DNA from: a virus | Taxonomy: Duplodnaviria; Heunggongvirae; Uroviricota; Caudoviricetes | DNA: 38,365 nucleotides | Virus record (IMG/VR): IMGVR_UViG_2778261245_000001 | Span: 1 to 38,365 of that record | Direction: 5' to 3' (one strand) | Part shown: positions 1 to 38,365 of the stretch, piece after piece | Position numbering within the stretch: position 1 is the first letter of the stretch | How the letters are laid out: the number at the start of each line of letters is the position of its first letter | Made by a program: the position numbers and the translations under genes | Notes under the pieces: generated by a model | Database searches by the model: none | Told to the model about the DNA's origin: nothing | Seen by the model: only the letters and a program-made list of their open reading frames with translations

Positions 1-336
1 TTACGCAGCTCGTTGCTGCGTCCGGTGCTGACTGTGTGCCGGGAAAGCGACGGCGTAATCAACAACAGCCTGTTCAGTTGCCTCATCGGTACGGTTCTTA
101 AGGTTAGGAGCGCGGCGACTACGATTAATCAGCGCATCCACACCACCTTCATCGACCAGTTCGCGGTAACGATAAAACGTATCACGCGAAACGCCCATGA
201 TTTTACAGGCTTTTGATACGTTGCTGAGTTCTTCAGCCAGATTGAGCAAACCGGTTTTGTGTTTGATAACGGGATTGGTAGTATGAAGCATGAGAGTTAC
301 CTCGTGTTTTGTATAAGGATTCGACACCCATATCAA
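1..336 (-). mobile_element. Truncated IS-type transposase N-terminal HTH fragment (111 codons, stop codon at 1-3)
   Basis: Translation has an HTH-rich N-terminus of the kind found in IS481/IS3-type transposases (GVSRDTFYRYRELVDEGGVDAL) but terminates after 111 aa with no catalytic domain; family assignment is from memory. Confidence 0.4.
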
Positions 337-402: not shown

Positions 403-1533
403 TCATATTGTTAAAGTTACCCAATTTTTTCCGCGGAGATCGTTATAACGATCAGTTTGTTGCTGGGTTTTATGTCCCAGCAATTTCTGAGTATCTATTC
501 CCTGTTCTTTGTATAGCCTTTCTGACAATGAACGTTGCTCATGAAAGGTTGCTGGGGTTCCTTCACCCCAATCAATTTCAGCCAGATCCCTTGCTTTGCT
601 AAAATTCATAGTCAGAGTATTAGCTTTTACTTGTGCCCCACGTTCTGCCTGTGAAGTTGATCTGAAAAAATGTACTAAGTATGGACTATCTACATAGTCA
701 CGGCAGCGAGCTACAACATCGCGCAGGCTCCAGTTGATTACATTCAAACGAAGAGAAAGAGGAATGGCTATTTTGCTGCCGGTTTTTTCCTGTTCGATAT
801 GCAGATGATCATCCCAGATATCGCTGAATTTCATTTTGGATATATCTCCCAAACGTTGGCCAGTAACCAGCGCTAACAGCATGGCATTTCCCATGTAACG
901 ATGAGTGGAGTCTGCGATATCAAAAATTTTTTGCCATTCTTCCAGGCTGAGGCGTTGACGGGTGATTTTCCTTCTGGGTTGCTTCGTCGCAAGAGCAGGG
1001 TTATACCCTGGTGGAACTTCGCCATAATGCTGTGCTTCCTTAAACACATCGATTAATACAGACCTTACGACTTGGGCCATTCTAGGCTGTCCAGCTGTAA
1101 TATACTCATCAAGCAATTGTGCTATATCTCTGACATCAACGGATGAGATCAACTTCATTCCTGCTCGTTCTCTGAGCAAGGATACTGGTTTGGCTTTTTG
1201 CTTATAGGTATTGAGTCTTATATCACCACTTTTGAGCCTATCATCCTGGATCGCTTGATAGCGATCTAACCAGGTTGACGTTGTGATCGCTTTTCCTTTG
1301 CAGGTTGCGATCCTGTCACTGATAGCCAGAATCTGTCGGGTTCTTTGTTCAGCCAGGCGTGTATTGGCTTCAGTGGCAATAGCGATGGCTTCAGCTTCGT
1401 TAGTTCCCAACGCATGAAATTTCCCTGTTACTGGATGCTTATACCGCCAATAGACTTTATTTACCTTCCTACTATAAAGCGGATATAAGTTAGGTACTGA
1501 AACATTATTCTTACGCGGTCTGGCTGCCATCAC
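403..1533 (-). CDS. int: Lambda-family tyrosine integrase
   Basis: 376 aa; C-terminal catalytic region ending FHEQRSLSERLY...LLGHK...YNDLRG closely parallels the lambda Int C-terminus (FHELRSLSARLY...LLGHK...YRDDRG); followed by excisionase as in lambda. Confidence 0.9.
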   Translation of the reverse strand: MMAARPRKNNVSVPNLYPLYSRKVNKVYWRYKHPVTGKFHALGTNEAEAIAIATEANTRLAEQRTRQILAISDRIATCKGKAITTSTWLDRYQAIQDDRLKSGDIRLNTYKQKAKPVSLLRERAGMKLISSVDVRDIAQLLDEYITAGQPRMAQVVRSVLIDVFKEAQHYGEVPPGYNPALATKQPRRKITRQRLSLEEWQKIFDIADSTHRYMGNAMLLALVTGQRLGDISKMKFSDIWDDHLHIEQEKTGSKIAIPLSLRLNVINWSLRDVVARCRDYVDSPYLVHFFRSTSQAERGAQVKANTLTMNFSKARDLAEIDWGEGTPATFHEQRSLSERLYKEQGIDTQKLLGHKTQQQTDRYNDLRGKNWVTLTI

Positions 1534-34505: not shown

Positions 34506-34878
34506 TTACTCACCAACAGCCCACCAACTGTAATGCATAGATACCGTGTCACTGGTTGATGACGTTCTGTAAGCAGAATTAAAGCCGGTTAACGTAGGGC
34601 CTTCTGCAGTCATCACGAACCCTCGCCCAGCGCCTAAAGGCGCACCGCCATCACCAGAATGGGTAAGAATGGCGCAGTCCGCTTTTTTAGGGAAAGGGAT
34701 AGGAAATGTAATCCTCATTGTTTGCGTCGATAATTTCGGCATAGCCTCGCCTCGACCATATTGCAGAATTTTACCGTTGGGTAATTTCATCCATCCATCA
34801 CCACTGGCAAAAGAGGCCATGTCCGGTATCTGATTTTCCCCTGTCCCTACATCCCGTTTTGCCGCTTCTCCCAAACCA
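34506..34878 (-). CDS. Alternative variable tail-fibre C-terminal segment (promoterless; expressed only after inversion)
   Basis: Minus-strand ORF whose 5-prime end coincides with the right crossover site (encodes INVGLGE matching the ENLGLGE junction of the expressed fibre); the ORF-track N-terminal extension to 34919 lies outside the segment and is probably not real. Confidence 0.55.
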
Positions 34879-34891
34879 ACGTTTATGAAAA
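34866..34891. other. Right crossover site of the invertible segment
   Basis: Reverse complement reads ...CATAAACGTTGGTTTGGGAGAA, sharing the 15-nt block TTGGTTTGGGAGAAG with the left site in inverted orientation. Confidence 0.6.
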
Positions 34892-34945
34892 TGCAGAAAT
34901 AACGAGCAAATGGCATCATTCCTGCTTTTGTCAGGGGGATCTACC

Positions 34946-35500
34946 ATGCTTATTGGCTATGTACGCGTATCAACAAATGACCAGAACACAGATCTACAAC
35001 GTAATGCGCTGAACTGTGCAGGATGCGAGCTGATTTTTGAAGACAAGATAAGCGGTACAAAGTCCGAAAGGCCGGGACTGAAAAAACTGCTCAGGACATT
35101 ATCGGCAGGTGACACGCTGGTGGTCTGGAAACTGGACCGGCTGGGGCGCAGTATGCGGCATCTTGTCGTGCTGGTGGAGGAGTTGCGCGAACGAGGCATC
35201 AACTTTCGTAGTCTGACGGATTCAATTGATACCAGTACCCCAATGGGGCGCTTTTTCTTTCATGTGATGGGTGCCCTGGCTGAAATGGAGCGTGAACTGA
35301 TTGTTGAAAGAACAAAAGCTGGACTGGAAGCTGCTCGCGCACAGGGACGAATTGGTGGACGTCGTCCCAAACTTACACCAGAACAATGGGAACAGGCCGG
35401 ACGATTAATTGCATCAGGAGTTCCTCGCCAGAAGGTGGCGATTATCTATGATGTTGGTGTGTCAACTTTGTATAAGAGGTTTCCTGCAGGGGATAAATAA
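34946..35500 (+). CDS. pin: Serine DNA invertase (Hin/Gin/Pin family)
   Basis: 184 aa from ATG 34946 with AGGGGGA RBS; MLIGYVRVSTNDQNTDLQRNAL...DTLVVWKLDRLGRSMRHL...GRRPKLT is the resolvase/invertase catalytic and HTH signature; matches PinE as recalled. Confidence 0.9.
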   Translation: MLIGYVRVSTNDQNTDLQRNALNCAGCELIFEDKISGTKSERPGLKKLLRTLSAGDTLVVWKLDRLGRSMRHLVVLVEELRERGINFRSLTDSIDTSTPMGRFFFHVMGALAEMERELIVERTKAGLEAARAQGRIGGRRPKLTPEQWEQAGRLIASGVPRQKVAIIYDVGVSTLYKRFPAGDK

Positions 35501-35606
35501 AGTTAAAGACACTTTTTGTACAAAAGAGAATAAAACAACAGCAACTTGTTGCAATTTTATCAATAAAAGTAGTATTGTCGTGAAAAATTGATTAAAGATT
35601 AATATT

Positions 35607-36440
35607 ATGCATGTTTTTGATAATAATGGAATTGAACTGAAAGCTGAGTGTTCGATAGGTGAAGAGGATGGTGTTTATGGTCTAATCCTTGAGTCGTGGG
35701 GGCCGGGTGACAGAAACAAAGATTACAATATCGCTCTTGATTATATCATTGAACGGTTGGTTGATTCTGGTGTATCCCAAGTCGTAGTATATCTGGCGTC
35801 ATCATCAGTCAGAAAACATATGCATTCTTTGGATGAAAGAAAAATCCATCCTGGTGAATATTTTACTTTGATTGGTAATAGCCCCCGCGATATACGCTTG
35901 AAGATGTGTGGTTATCAGGCTTATTTTAGTCGTACGGGGAGAAAGGAAATTCCTTCCGGCAATAGAACGAAACGAATATTGATAAATGTCCCAGGTATTT
36001 ATAGTGACAGTTTTTGGGCGTCTATAATACGTGGAGAACTATCAGAGCTTTCACAGCCTACAGATGATGAATCGCTTCTGAATATGAGGGTTAGTAAATT
36101 AATTAAGAAAACGTTGAGTCAACCCGAGGGCTCCAGGAAACCAGTTGAGGTAGAAAGACTACAAAAAGTTTATGTCCGAGACCCGATGGTAAAAGCTTGG
36201 ATTTTACAGCAAAGTAAAGGTATATGTGAAAACTGTGGTAAAAATGCTCCGTTTTATTTAAATGATGGAAACCCATATTTGGAAGTGCATCATGTAATTC
36301 CCCTGTCTTCAGGTGGTGCTGATACAACAGATAACTGTGTTGCCCTTTGTCCGAATTGCCATAGAGAATTGCACTATAGTAAAAATGCAAAAGAACTAAT
36401 CGAGATGCTTTACGTTAATATAAACCGATTACAGAAATAA
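35607..36440 (+). CDS. mcrA: McrA-like HNH endonuclease (modified-cytosine restriction)
   Basis: 277 aa, AT-rich; C-terminal CENCGKNAPFYLNDGNPYLEVHHVIPLSSGGADTTDNCVALCPNCH HNH motif; same length and position (after pin, before icd fragment) as mcrA of e14; N-terminus MHVFDNNGIEL as recalled for McrA. Confidence 0.8.
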   Translation: MHVFDNNGIELKAECSIGEEDGVYGLILESWGPGDRNKDYNIALDYIIERLVDSGVSQVVVYLASSSVRKHMHSLDERKIHPGEYFTLIGNSPRDIRLKMCGYQAYFSRTGRKEIPSGNRTKRILINVPGIYSDSFWASIIRGELSELSQPTDDESLLNMRVSKLIKKTLSQPEGSRKPVEVERLQKVYVRDPMVKAWILQQSKGICENCGKNAPFYLNDGNPYLEVHHVIPLSSGGADTTDNCVALCPNCHRELHYSKNAKELIEMLYVNINRLQK

Positions 36441-36673
36441 AATTATTTATTAAAGTCACATTTAAGACGTAATACCCTACAGGGTAAAAATTTTCTCTGA
36501 TCTTAACTTCTGCAAATGTTAACTGCTATTTTTATGCTAAAAATGGTTATCAAAACTCAAAAACACATGTTTATAATCAATGAGTTATAGAAATGCTAAG
36601 GGCTAATGAGTTATATGCAAATTAGTAAAATTATGTTGCTATGTCAAATAGTTACGATTTAGTCATCTAACTA

Positions 36674-36838
36674 ATGTTACGCCATATGGGTTGGACTGAA
36701 GCGGCTGACCTGATTGTTAAAGGTATGGAAGGCGCAATCAATGCCAAGACCGTAACCTATGACTTCGAACGTCTGATGGAAGGCGCTAAACTGCTGAAAT
36801 GTTCAGAGTTTGGTGACGCGATCATCAAGAACATGTAA
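36674..36838 (+). pseudogene. icd: Displaced 3-prime fragment of isocitrate dehydrogenase gene (icdC-like), marking the prophage right junction
   Basis: Encodes (M)[53 protein letters not shown], matching the Icd C-terminus; homology begins abruptly at about 36671 after AT-rich phage DNA. Confidence 0.85.
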
Positions 36839-36861
36839 TCACTACATGTGTTAAATATTTA

Positions 36862-36890
36862 AACGGGCGTATAATACGCCCGTTGTTTTA
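36862..36890 (+). terminator. icd transcription terminator
   Basis: Perfect 10-bp stem AACGGGCGTA / TACGCCCGTT with loop TAA followed by GTTTTATTTAT. Confidence 0.8.
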
Positions 36891-36940
36891 TTTATGTGGA
36901 TATTATTAATAGCATATCGAGCATATTTATATAAAACCTA

Positions 36941-37264
36941 TTACTTGAGCCCATATGGGCATATTTTTATAATACAACTCTTATGCAAACATTTATTTGT
37001 TATTTCGCTTTCTCCTGGAGGACACTCTTGACAGCTTTTGAGTAAACTCCATAAATTCTTGTTGAATGGTGCAATGTTATAAATAGTAATAGGGTATTCT
37101 TTATCCTTAAGGATAATACCAGGCTTAACCGGTGTAAATATACTTCCAGGAGGAAGAAATATAGTAGATTGATACCAGATGATCATTTTCATATCACCCC
37201 ATATGGCTGAAAAAGATATGCCGCATGTAGGTTGAATTACCGTGTCAATTACTACCCACTTCAT
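36941..37264 (-). CDS. iraM: Anti-adaptor protein IraM (RssB inhibitor)
   Basis: 107 aa; [41 protein letters not shown] matches IraM as recalled; position between icd fragment and ycgX as in E. coli K-12. Confidence 0.75.
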
Positions 37265-37722
37265 TTGTTATGTCTTATCCCACGGTATTTAATATAGTTC
37301 ATTTGGATGTTCATTTCTTTATTTTGCATATGAGTATATTACCCTTCAAAAAAAATAAATTAATTAAAACGATTGCTTATATAAAACAAAACTTAAAGCA
37401 AGGAATCTCAATGGATGTTAAACAAAATGAGATTTAGTGAAAACAATAAATTATTCACTTCGTTTTAGATTTGTTTAGCTATAATGTTATACATTCAAAT
37501 GACTGAACATCCTGTAATTAAAACATAGCCTTTATGCTACTTTGTGCCAATTTGCTAAACATTATGGTTGCCTTTTTATATAACGATAATAATGAATATA
37601 AGCATGACATGAGAATAAGGTTTCAATTTTTGAGTTATATAGGAAAGGTTTAACCTGTTCCTGGCTAAAATACATATAACTGGATGATGACTAAACCAAA
37701 ACACATGTGCGTTAAGTATTGA

Positions 37723-37750
37723 AACGGGCGTATGGCACGCCCGTTGGTTT
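37723..37750 (+). terminator. Second copy of the icd-terminator-like hairpin
   Basis: Stem AACGGGCGT / ACGCCCGTT, loop ATGGC, followed by GGTTTTAT; about 55 nt including upstream ACATGTG..TTAA.TATT is roughly 85 percent identical to 36845-36895. Confidence 0.6.
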
Positions 37751-37960
37751 TATAAATATGTTAACCGTTATAAAATAACGTATAGAAAGTCAAGTGATCA
37801 CATTTCAAATATCAATTTGATAGTATTGGCCTGGTGATTATTTATGGGTAGCAATAAAAGGACCGTATTTATCATCCATAGGGATAGTCTCTGTACTTTT
37901 ATTCCCATTATGCTAATGCCTTACTGAATTATGAAGCATTTCTTAAGCATCCAACTTTAG

Positions 37961-38365
37961 CTAGATTAATGGTTTATTATTTTCTACATCTTCAATATAT
38001 AAAAGCGTATTATCAATGGCGTAGTAACTGCGTTTGTTATGATTAACATCAGTAACCCAACGAAAAACGCCCGCGCCTGCCAGTGTTGAACAGTATTCCC
38101 GAAATGTAGATTTTCCGCAAATATGAAGCAATGCGGCCTCTTTTATTTTAGCAGGGTTCTTGATCGTACTAACTTTTAACAGGTTCCTGGTTCCTCTTAA
38201 TAACAAAACCGTGTCATCGTGAGTAATAATTCTGATGTTATCCGTAGCCAGATAATAAATGTAATGTGCAATACGGTGATGTTTTAATTCTGAATAAAAC
38301 CAGGAGAAGTTTTGCTCTTTTCTCACTTGCTCAAACATCTTTTGAAAAACAACGACCTGATCCAT
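37961..38365 (-). CDS. ycgX: YcgX-like protein (DUF1398), host gene
   Basis: 134 aa complete ORF ending at the window edge; length and position after iraM match ycgX of E. coli K-12. Confidence 0.55.
   Translation of the reverse strand: MDQVVVFQKMFEQVRKEQNFSWFYSELKHHRIAHYIYYLATDNIRIITHDDTVLLLRGTRNLLKVSTIKNPAKIKEAALLHICGKSTFREYCSTLAGAGVFRWVTDVNHNKRSYYAIDNTLLYIEDVENNKPLI

Follow-up and report, generated by a model that had tools for sequence, protein, structure and literature searches.

We describe here a stretch of 38,365 nucleotides (hereafter the window) in which iraM lies just beyond the right end of a resident e14-like prophage and is bracketed by two directly repeated copies of the icd terminator. 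We propose that this arrangement reflects serial use of icd as an integration site, the iraM cassette being the last remnant of an earlier prophage and the second terminator what is left of the block that this prophage displaced; from comparisons among genomes we give this reading a probability of roughly 70%. The repeat, an exact insertion/deletion polymorphism, a phage-borne icd block with its right edge, a less decayed allele in another strain, and the association of the IraM family with phages are all observed directly, and from these we infer that an icd-integrated prophage brought iraM, in what order the events took place, that the indel is a loss, and that the hairpins work as terminators. 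If true, the proposal offers a concrete mechanism for the presence/absence polymorphism of iraM, and a worked example of an attachment site in a housekeeping gene that gathers domesticated cargo.

The features on which the argument draws are as follows (window coordinates; icd itself and attL lie outside the window).

1-336: transposase fragment at the window start, inside or adjoining the prophage.
403-1533: integrase, at the prophage end opposite icdC.
34865-36673, plus strand: right end of the resident e14-like prophage, assigned by collinearity with K-12.
34910-35500, plus strand: pin, within that right end.
35607-36440, plus strand: mcrA (HNH match, E 3.5e-15).
36441-36673, plus strand: AT-rich right arm (26.6% G+C).
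36674-36838, plus strand: icdC, comprising the final 54 codons of icd with the stop, displaced from the gene and forming the left part of replacement block 1.
36844-36897, no strand assigned: direct repeat copy 1, the icd intrinsic terminator (hairpin 36861-36885, T-run to 36891).
36898-37702, minus strand: iraM cassette (805 bp, 29.9% G+C).
36941-37264, minus strand: iraM coding sequence (91-94% identity to proteins named IraM).
37265-37702, minus strand: iraM upstream regulatory region within the cassette, including the ymgK mini-ORF region.
37703-37757, no strand assigned: direct repeat copy 2, terminator only (hairpin 37722-37746), downstream of ymgL-ycgX and upstream of the iraM promoter region.
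37746-37800, plus strand: right flank of copy 2, with weak collinear likeness to the e14 attL arm (TAAC.GTTAT.AAAAT...TATCAAAA).
37798-37908, minus strand: ymgL, in the flank common to iraM-bearing and iraM-less alleles.
37961-38365, minus strand: ycgX (DUF1398), in the same common flank.

The segment 36674-36838, together with terminator 1, lies at the right junction (attR) of an icd-integrating prophage of the e14 type. The plus-strand open reading frame at these positions matches the C-terminus of the Pfam Iso_dh profile (profile positions 301-348 of 348, E 1.5e-6), and icdC is the annotated name of the corresponding segment in K-12. Window positions 34865-38365 are collinear with the right end of K-12 e14 and its flank at 97.1% identity, and the gene order (pinE, mcrA, icdC, iraM, ymgK, ymgL, ycgX) is shared. 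The junction has the character of an attR, with icd 3' homology beginning abruptly at the att core, at the end of the prophage opposite the integrase. Alignments of prophage-free E. coli genomes to the window start at 36674 or 36680 (positions 275 or 281 of a query beginning at 36400), which bears out the abrupt start that a preliminary description of this DNA had put at about 36671; in the prophage-free genomes 23CRST031, GZ04-0086, and w264 an intact icd continues into the same downstream DNA. Phage-sized open reading frames occur throughout the prophage, which measures ~36 kb in the window versus the 15-kb remnant in K-12. The genome closest to the window is that of strain EC05 (98.6%).

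The icd segment found at this junction is also carried by phages. A search of a phage collection with the icd 3' end returned 28 records, of which 26 matched 80% or more of the query length, and among the matches listed, which include phage 21 and many lambda-like isolates, the match runs from 36674 or 36680 to 36891 and ends there. The annotation of phage 21 gives the block as an ICDH-like protein and, after it, a terminator. In the O157:H7 strain SS17, the integrase gene begins immediately past the right edge of the block (equivalent to 36891), and in K-12 the icd end borne by e14 runs into a diverged form of the hairpin that is e14's own, AACGGGAGCGTAACGCTCCCGTT, beyond which lies the phage arm TGTTAGGCTGCTAACGGTTATCAAAATTTTATCAAAA. 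Judging from the phage 21/lambda-like, SS17, and K-12 junctions, icd-using phages of the e14 and 21 types carry a replacement block of ~218 bp with the terminator as its last element. The right edge of repeat copy 1 is the right edge of this phage-borne block. The crossover core is found at 36674-36690, ~165 bp upstream of the duplicated terminator block. The repeats had initially been described as the attachment-site region; they do represent the distal end of the ~218-bp replacement block, but not the crossover core.

The hairpin of terminator 1, AACGGGCGTATAATACGCCCGTT, occupies 36862-36884 and is followed by GTTTTATTTA; that of copy 2, AACGGGCGTATGGCACGCCCGTT, occupies 37723-37745 and is followed by GGTTTTATAA. 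Without gaps, 36847-36889 matches 37708-37750 over 43 nt (84%) at a spacing of 861, and with gaps 36844-36891 matches 37703-37753 over 51 columns (84.3%, E 1.2e-8 within the window), the two copies disagreeing at ~8 of the 51 aligned columns. These values agree with the preliminary description, in which the icd stop and terminator were said to be followed by a recurrence about 860 bp further on at about 85% identity. K-12 and other E. coli have both copies as well, and so do 28 IMG/VR provirus calls. G+C-rich hairpins followed by a T-run are common, and the bare stem pattern AACGGGCGTNNNNNNACGCCCGTT occurs at no fewer than 120 loci in genome contigs of unrelated bacteria (with no Escherichia among the matches listed), as would suit an origin of copy 2 as an unrelated terminator, alike by convergence or chance. 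The likeness, however, extends beyond the stem to the loop and the non-pairing flanks, ~20 nt on either side of the terminator, it holds over 51 columns at 84% (E 1.2e-8), and the hairpin pattern had no match in 100 dinucleotide-preserving shuffles. A further argument against convergence comes from a divergent allele described below.

Both hairpins pass an intrinsic-terminator consensus scan on the plus strand, the tails on the minus strand being less T-rich, and folding energies for the two hairpins on both strands range from -15.3 to -19.2 kcal/mol (terminator 1: -19.2 kcal/mol on the plus strand, -17.6 on the minus). Based on the scan and the folding, the hairpins would insulate icd, iraM, and ycgX-ymgL: copy 1 is probably a bidirectional terminator, serving icd transcripts on the plus strand and iraM transcripts on the minus strand, and copy 2 plausibly acts as the terminator of ycgX-ymgL and thereby insulates the iraM promoter.

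The iraM gene lies outside the resident prophage, because homology with the host begins to the left of iraM, the gene is present in prophage-free genomes, and the K-12 annotation ends e14 at 1211412 and places iraM at 1211680-1212003. In prophage-free E. coli the order is icd, terminator 1, iraM, terminator 2, ymgL, ycgX, as seen in at least 3844 of the 5426 complete genomes of the species. The order icd-iraM-ymgK-ymgL-ycgX is found in the prophage-free strains 23CRST031, with icd intact and both terminators present, GZ04-0086, and w264; in the latter two the terminator 2 region is degenerate and a search with the hairpin pattern gave no match there. Among the genomes examined, none combined iraM with a lone terminator copy where the junction was intact, a combination named beforehand as contradicting the proposed history: K-12 retains copy 2 with a mismatch in the stem, and strain B19695 has lost it through an IS1-associated deletion. 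Hryckowian et al. 2014 (PMC4045071) place iraM of K-12 on the e14 prophage, and the IMG/VR provirus calls all end ~1.1 kb beyond iraM and so enclose the iraM-ycgX segment. Were iraM part of the resident e14-type prophage, copy 2 would be the true right end of that prophage; this is refuted by iraM with both terminators beside an intact icd in prophage-free genomes, by host homology from 36674 onwards, to the left of iraM, and by the annotated end of K-12 e14 before icdC, and we give it next to no weight. The placement of iraM on e14 in PMC4045071 is imprecise, and provirus predictors overshoot the e14-type boundary by ~1.7 kb of host DNA.

Within the window, no icd coding homology was found upstream of copy 2, where local alignments were no better than those of shuffled sequence, and the distal repeat lacks target-gene sequence; such sequence was found only in a divergent allele shared by 19 E. 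coli genomes, those of strain 2013C-4282 and 18 others, which was reached via an IraM relative of 72% identity. The 2013C-4282 allele starts with an intact icd and terminator 1, followed by TGTTAGCATGCTAACGGTTATCAAAATTTTATCAAAA, which is nearly the attL arm of K-12 e14. An island of ~6 kb then contains a 455-aa open reading frame, an IS5 fragment, trkG, iraM' (72% amino acid identity), and a ymgB/ariR-like gene, and no integrase was found in it. After the ymgB/ariR-like gene come a homologue of window positions 37293-37659 and ~220 extra nt, and the allele ends with ATCAAGAATATGT, corresponding to the last four icd codons, then terminator 2', ymgL, and ycgX. Matched against each other within 2013C-4282, the icd end with terminator 1 and the terminator 2' region align over 67 nt (82%, E 5e-13), the alignment starting in coding sequence.

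This is the structure expected of an old e14-type icd prophage in which the displaced icd end has eroded to a few codons. Because the orthologous copy in 2013C-4282 is still fused to icd codons, the comparison shows that terminators of the copy-2 type descend from the icd block and are not convergent. The ATCAAGAATATGT fusion thus rules against the case, raised at the outset as a refutation, that copy 2 is an unrelated convergent terminator, and we consider that case extremely improbable. It is important to note that the e14-type arm, trkG, and iraM' of 2013C-4282 could stem from more than one event, and the arm is therefore no proof that iraM' arrived together with it.

A single terminator and no iraM, with a length exactly 861 bp shorter, are found in 1037 of the 5426 complete genomes (contiguous match to a 241-nt junction query), including the type strain ATCC 11775 and Seattle 1946; about a fifth of E. 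coli strains are thus without iraM. The preliminary description had asked whether iraM is missing from genomes with a lone terminator copy, and this check supports its reading. In UTI89, which has a single terminator, 825 bp separate the icd 3' end from ycgX, versus 1686 bp. The gene is absent from UTI89 and ATCC 11775 and, according to the literature, from CFT073; its patchy distribution had so far been described without explanation.

The missing 861-bp unit corresponds to the cassette plus one repeat. The single terminator of iraM-less alleles equals the usual copy 1 in its left part and loop, and copy 2 from the T-run rightwards; a stretch of 15 nt, CACGCCCGTTGTTTT, is identical in both copies and a crossover would fit there. 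A reading of the UTI89 terminator as a mosaic beyond one crossover was dropped, the usual copy 1 being identical to UTI89 through the loop; copy 1 of the window has lineage-specific changes relative to the usual copy 1 of other strains.

Over ymgL-ycgX (606 nt), alleles of the 861-bp type and empty alleles differ from one another by 0-4%, and each of them is 22-24% away from the 2013C-4282 allele, whose iraM cassette diverges by 21-28%. As flank and cassette have diverged to a similar degree, the linkage of iraM with ymgL-ycgX would be older than the split between the allele classes. The two empty alleles examined, UTI89 and WP9-S17-ESBL-11, both belong to the shallow cluster and form no group of their own. 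Because empty alleles nest among iraM-bearing ones, the iraM-less alleles are probably secondary deletions between the terminators and not never-occupied sites, and iraM was possibly lost more than once, the direction of the indel being read from a single-locus tree in a recombining species, without an outgroup (E. fergusonii, E. albertii, cryptic clades) for the region downstream of icd. The YcgX homologues of Escherichia sp. E10V10 (in a flagellar region) and E. albertii (in a lambdoid prophage) sit away from icd and are therefore uninformative on the icd locus.

The same indel lends itself to another interpretation, in which an integrative element inserted at the terminator hairpin rather than at the e14 core within icd, its own core lying in the right stem and T-run (CACGCCCGTTGTTTT), and brought its own diverged left hairpin half; the 861-bp cassette would then be the remnant of that element, and single-terminator alleles would be unoccupied or precisely excised attB sites. 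The exactness of the indel is in keeping with this, as is the empty allele, with copy 1 on its left and copy 2 on its right in the manner of attB against attL and attR, and the repeat in the window does span the terminator only. The icd codons before terminator 2 and the e14-type arm in the divergent allele, however, point to a core within icd, the repeat and the phage-borne icd block share their right edge, the cassette has no linked integrase, and empty alleles are nested among occupied ones. We therefore regard targeting of the hairpin as unlikely.

IraM controls RpoS stability under magnesium starvation, and chromosomal iraM has been reported as PhoP-regulated. Clusters at 91-94% identity to the window protein carry a precomputed PF11183 hit (IraM / PmrD-like anti-adaptor), and it is on this near-identity to named IraM clusters that family membership rests; an hmmscan of the window iraM product itself gave no Pfam hit at E <= 0.01. 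The cassette stands out by its G+C content (29.9% versus 46% for icdC and 49% for the whole window). The family has a marked association with phages: the window IraM matches phrog_4407 (E 7e-50), and an IraM relative of 64.5% identity is held by 46 phage records, mostly Stx2 or Stx2-converting phages. In assembled genomes, IraM homologues occur in two settings, one immediately after stxAB and the other, in a lambdoid prophage of E. albertii, in the interval from Q to the lysis genes; one more relative is located in an island with an integrase. Similarity at the DNA level between phage-type and chromosomal iraM is confined to the coding region (73% of nucleotides), the flanks being unrelated.

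In every intact phage examined, the IraM homologue occupies the moron slot of the late region, away from the prophage ends. A donor phage with iraM beside an icd attP block was not found among 52 IMG/VR loci with IraM homologues of 60-64% identity; the 28 IMG/VR loci with IraM at 91-99% are provirus calls of this same locus. With the gene in that slot and no icd block near any of these 52 loci, a relic origin requires at least two internal deletions. No integrase, other core phage gene, or arm-type site was found in the cassette (36898-37702), and similarity to the right (attR-side) arm of e14 in the iraM upstream regions of the window and 2013C-4282 was not significant, 75-318 of 500 shuffles equalling it. 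With no integrase or arm relic in the window cassette, the case for a relic rests on comparison with other genomes.

The lack of phage structural or integration genes in the cassette is what might be expected had no phage been involved, i.e. had the terminator been duplicated locally, by unequal crossing-over or repair-associated insertion, and iraM been acquired horizontally between the copies by chance; both hairpins would be useful as terminators, so selection could have retained the duplicate. A recent duplication in place is argued against by the ~8 of 51 columns at which the copies differ, compared with the 1-4% by which flanks differ among strains, and three further points weigh against this scenario: the divergent allele has an e14-type arm and an icd-codon remnant, the IraM family is tied to phages, and the repeat ends where the phage block ends. 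We see only a slight chance for it.

Serial integration at icd gives the best-supported account of the locus, in the following manner. The attP of an incoming phage would bring the ~218-bp block, made up of the terminal 165 bp of icd with the stop codon and the intrinsic terminator to its T-run. Upon integration, the phage block would be joined to icd and the previous block pushed to the far (right) end of the prophage, and repeated integrations would stack blocks in direct orientation, the newest nearest to icd and the surviving pieces of each prophage lying in between. The resident e14-like prophage would have displaced block 1 (icdC and terminator 1, 36674-36891); the next 805 bp, with iraM and its regulatory region, would be the last remnant of an earlier icd prophage; and terminator 2 (37703-37757) would be the rest of the block displaced by that prophage, its icd coding part having since been deleted. 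Recombination or replication slippage between the two copies, at CACGCCCGTTGTTTT, would delete iraM precisely, the 15-nt identity permitting the 861-bp-shorter alleles of the UTI89 type. That iraM sits on the relic of an earlier integration at icd was the central suggestion of the preliminary description, and the phage block edge, the 2013C-4282 allele, the phage-borne IraM family, and the 30% G+C of the cassette lend it support.

A still older layer may be present further to the right. The flank of copy 2 aligns locally with the K-12 e14 arm with a score of 14 in the window and 17 in UTI89, compared with shuffle means of 9.1-9.2; these scores were reached by 14 of 1000 shuffles for the window and 1 of 1000 for UTI89. 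The register of the alignment, counted from the hairpin, is the same in 2013C-4282, and the flank is also present in UTI89 and K-12. YcgX matches phrog_413 (E 4e-41), and a relative of 71% identity is found inside a lambdoid prophage of E. albertii. This arm-like flank and phage-type YcgX are suggestive, and positions 37746-37800 may mark where an e14-type phage integrated even earlier, so that ymgL-ycgX may lie on that older scar. In the 33 kb downstream of icdC in K-12, no further icd blocks or terminator copies were found beyond copy 2, leaving the right end of any older relic unmarked. Extending the argument, the region from icd to at least ycgX might consist of three or more stacked e14-type scars, namely the resident prophage, the relic with iraM, and a further relic with ymgL-ycgX, at whose start lie terminator 2 and a degenerate attL arm. 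One attachment site would then have supplied regulatory cargo (iraM, perhaps ycgX, and connectors of the AriR/YmgB type), and the repeated terminators would have served as deletion points for the iraM-positive/iraM-negative polymorphism between phylogroups. We put this extension forward tentatively and think it more doubtful than probable.

Among the closest known systems is e14 itself, whose attachment in icd of K-12, giving icd and icdC, is credited to Hill, Gray and Brody (1989) in passages of PMC6379469 and PMC13626634. The K-12 e14/icdC junction has the same structure as block 1 of the window (icdC and terminator 1 adjoining pin-mcrA) and is collinear and 97% identical with it. The literature that we found deals only with e14 icd/icdC, icd as a known prophage site, and the claim of iraM on e14; none of the papers found describes a second terminator copy beyond iraM or a relic. 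The attP of phage 21 and lambda-like phages holds the same ~218-bp block, including the terminator and with the same right edge at 36891; these attP sites are intact and in phage genomes, whereas copy 2 of the window would be a truncated chromosomal leftover.

Phage morons are cargo genes with their own promoter and terminator in the late regions of lambdoid phages. IraM homologues resemble them in that they lie, in Stx and E. albertii prophages, after Q or stx and ahead of the lysis genes, and chromosomal iraM likewise has its own promoter region and terminators. Unlike the phage moron copies, chromosomal iraM is fixed in most E. coli, is PhoP-regulated according to the literature, and has unrelated flanks.

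Serial integration at the 3' ends of tRNA and tmRNA genes produces stacked islands separated by repeated gene 3' ends. As in those scars, direct repeats of the target 3' end would separate the elements at the icd locus, the newest lying beside the gene and the older having decayed to a few cargo genes; in contrast to them, the target at icd is a protein gene with its terminator, and the older repeat in the window is without coding sequence. The serial integration scar is of a well-known kind, of which the proposed terminator-bracketed iraM relic would be a further example.

The interval between both icd terminators, which holds iraM in the window, is occupied by an alternative 6-kb island in 2013C-4282 (L147:6423-12740), as in 19 genomes altogether. 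The island of 2013C-4282 contains the following:

e14-type arm
455-aa open reading frame
IS5 fragment
trkG, which in K-12 is a gene of the Rac prophage
iraM', a divergent iraM
ymgB/ariR-like gene
42-codon open reading frame, minus strand, in an extra 220 nt ahead of terminator 2', the counterpart of terminator 2

The upstream region driving iraM in the window appears to be common to both the ymgB-like gene and iraM' of this island.

Terminator 2, the repeat beyond iraM, is less well preserved in K-12 (L135:3445-3497, corresponding to window 37706-37758), where a mismatch interrupts the stem (AACGGACGTG...CACGGCCGTT) and the folding energy is only -9.7 kcal/mol, versus -15 to -17 kcal/mol in the window. 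Constraint on this copy seems weaker than on copy 1, the icd hairpin after icdC. To the right of terminator 2, window positions 37746-37800 are similar to the phage arm of e14 attL, in identical register from the hairpin. The ymgL-ycgX segment may itself lie on a still older e14-type scar.

At terminator 1, the hairpin loop is inverted (GTATAACAC to GTGTTATAC) in both WP9-S17-ESBL-11 (L132:1683-1720) and B19695 (L133:2683-2720), with IS200C directly 3' of the terminator T-run in each strain. The former has the empty junction, lacking iraM, while the latter carries iraM. Taken together, this suggests that either insertions favour a hot spot beside the hairpin or iraM was lost independently a second time. 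In O157:H7 SS17 (L003:4219-5421), the DNA after the icd terminator belongs to a different prophage, one with CCCCAAAAC arm repeats; icdC, iraM, and ycgX have no match anywhere in the SS17 genome, and the right junction and its flank have therefore been deleted.

For this type of prophage, the provirus calls in IMG/VR (L149-L176) all stop approximately 1.1 kb past iraM, as does the window, and the predicted boundary therefore overshoots attR, the right junction at icdC, by approximately 1.7 kb into host DNA (window 36674-38365), taking in icdC, iraM, ymgL, and ycgX. The icd/attL junction is missing from the window, and int and attL may therefore have an IS element between them; the left end of the window carries:

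1-336, minus strand, transposase fragment (HTH_29), next to the integrase gene
403-1533, minus strand, prophage integrase gene

An IraM homologue with 64-69% amino acid identity is encoded directly downstream of stx2AB in Stx2-converting phages (L007:3206-5105, L008, and L009, together with phage records), so an anti-adaptor that stabilises RpoS may be among the genes that toxin phages carry.
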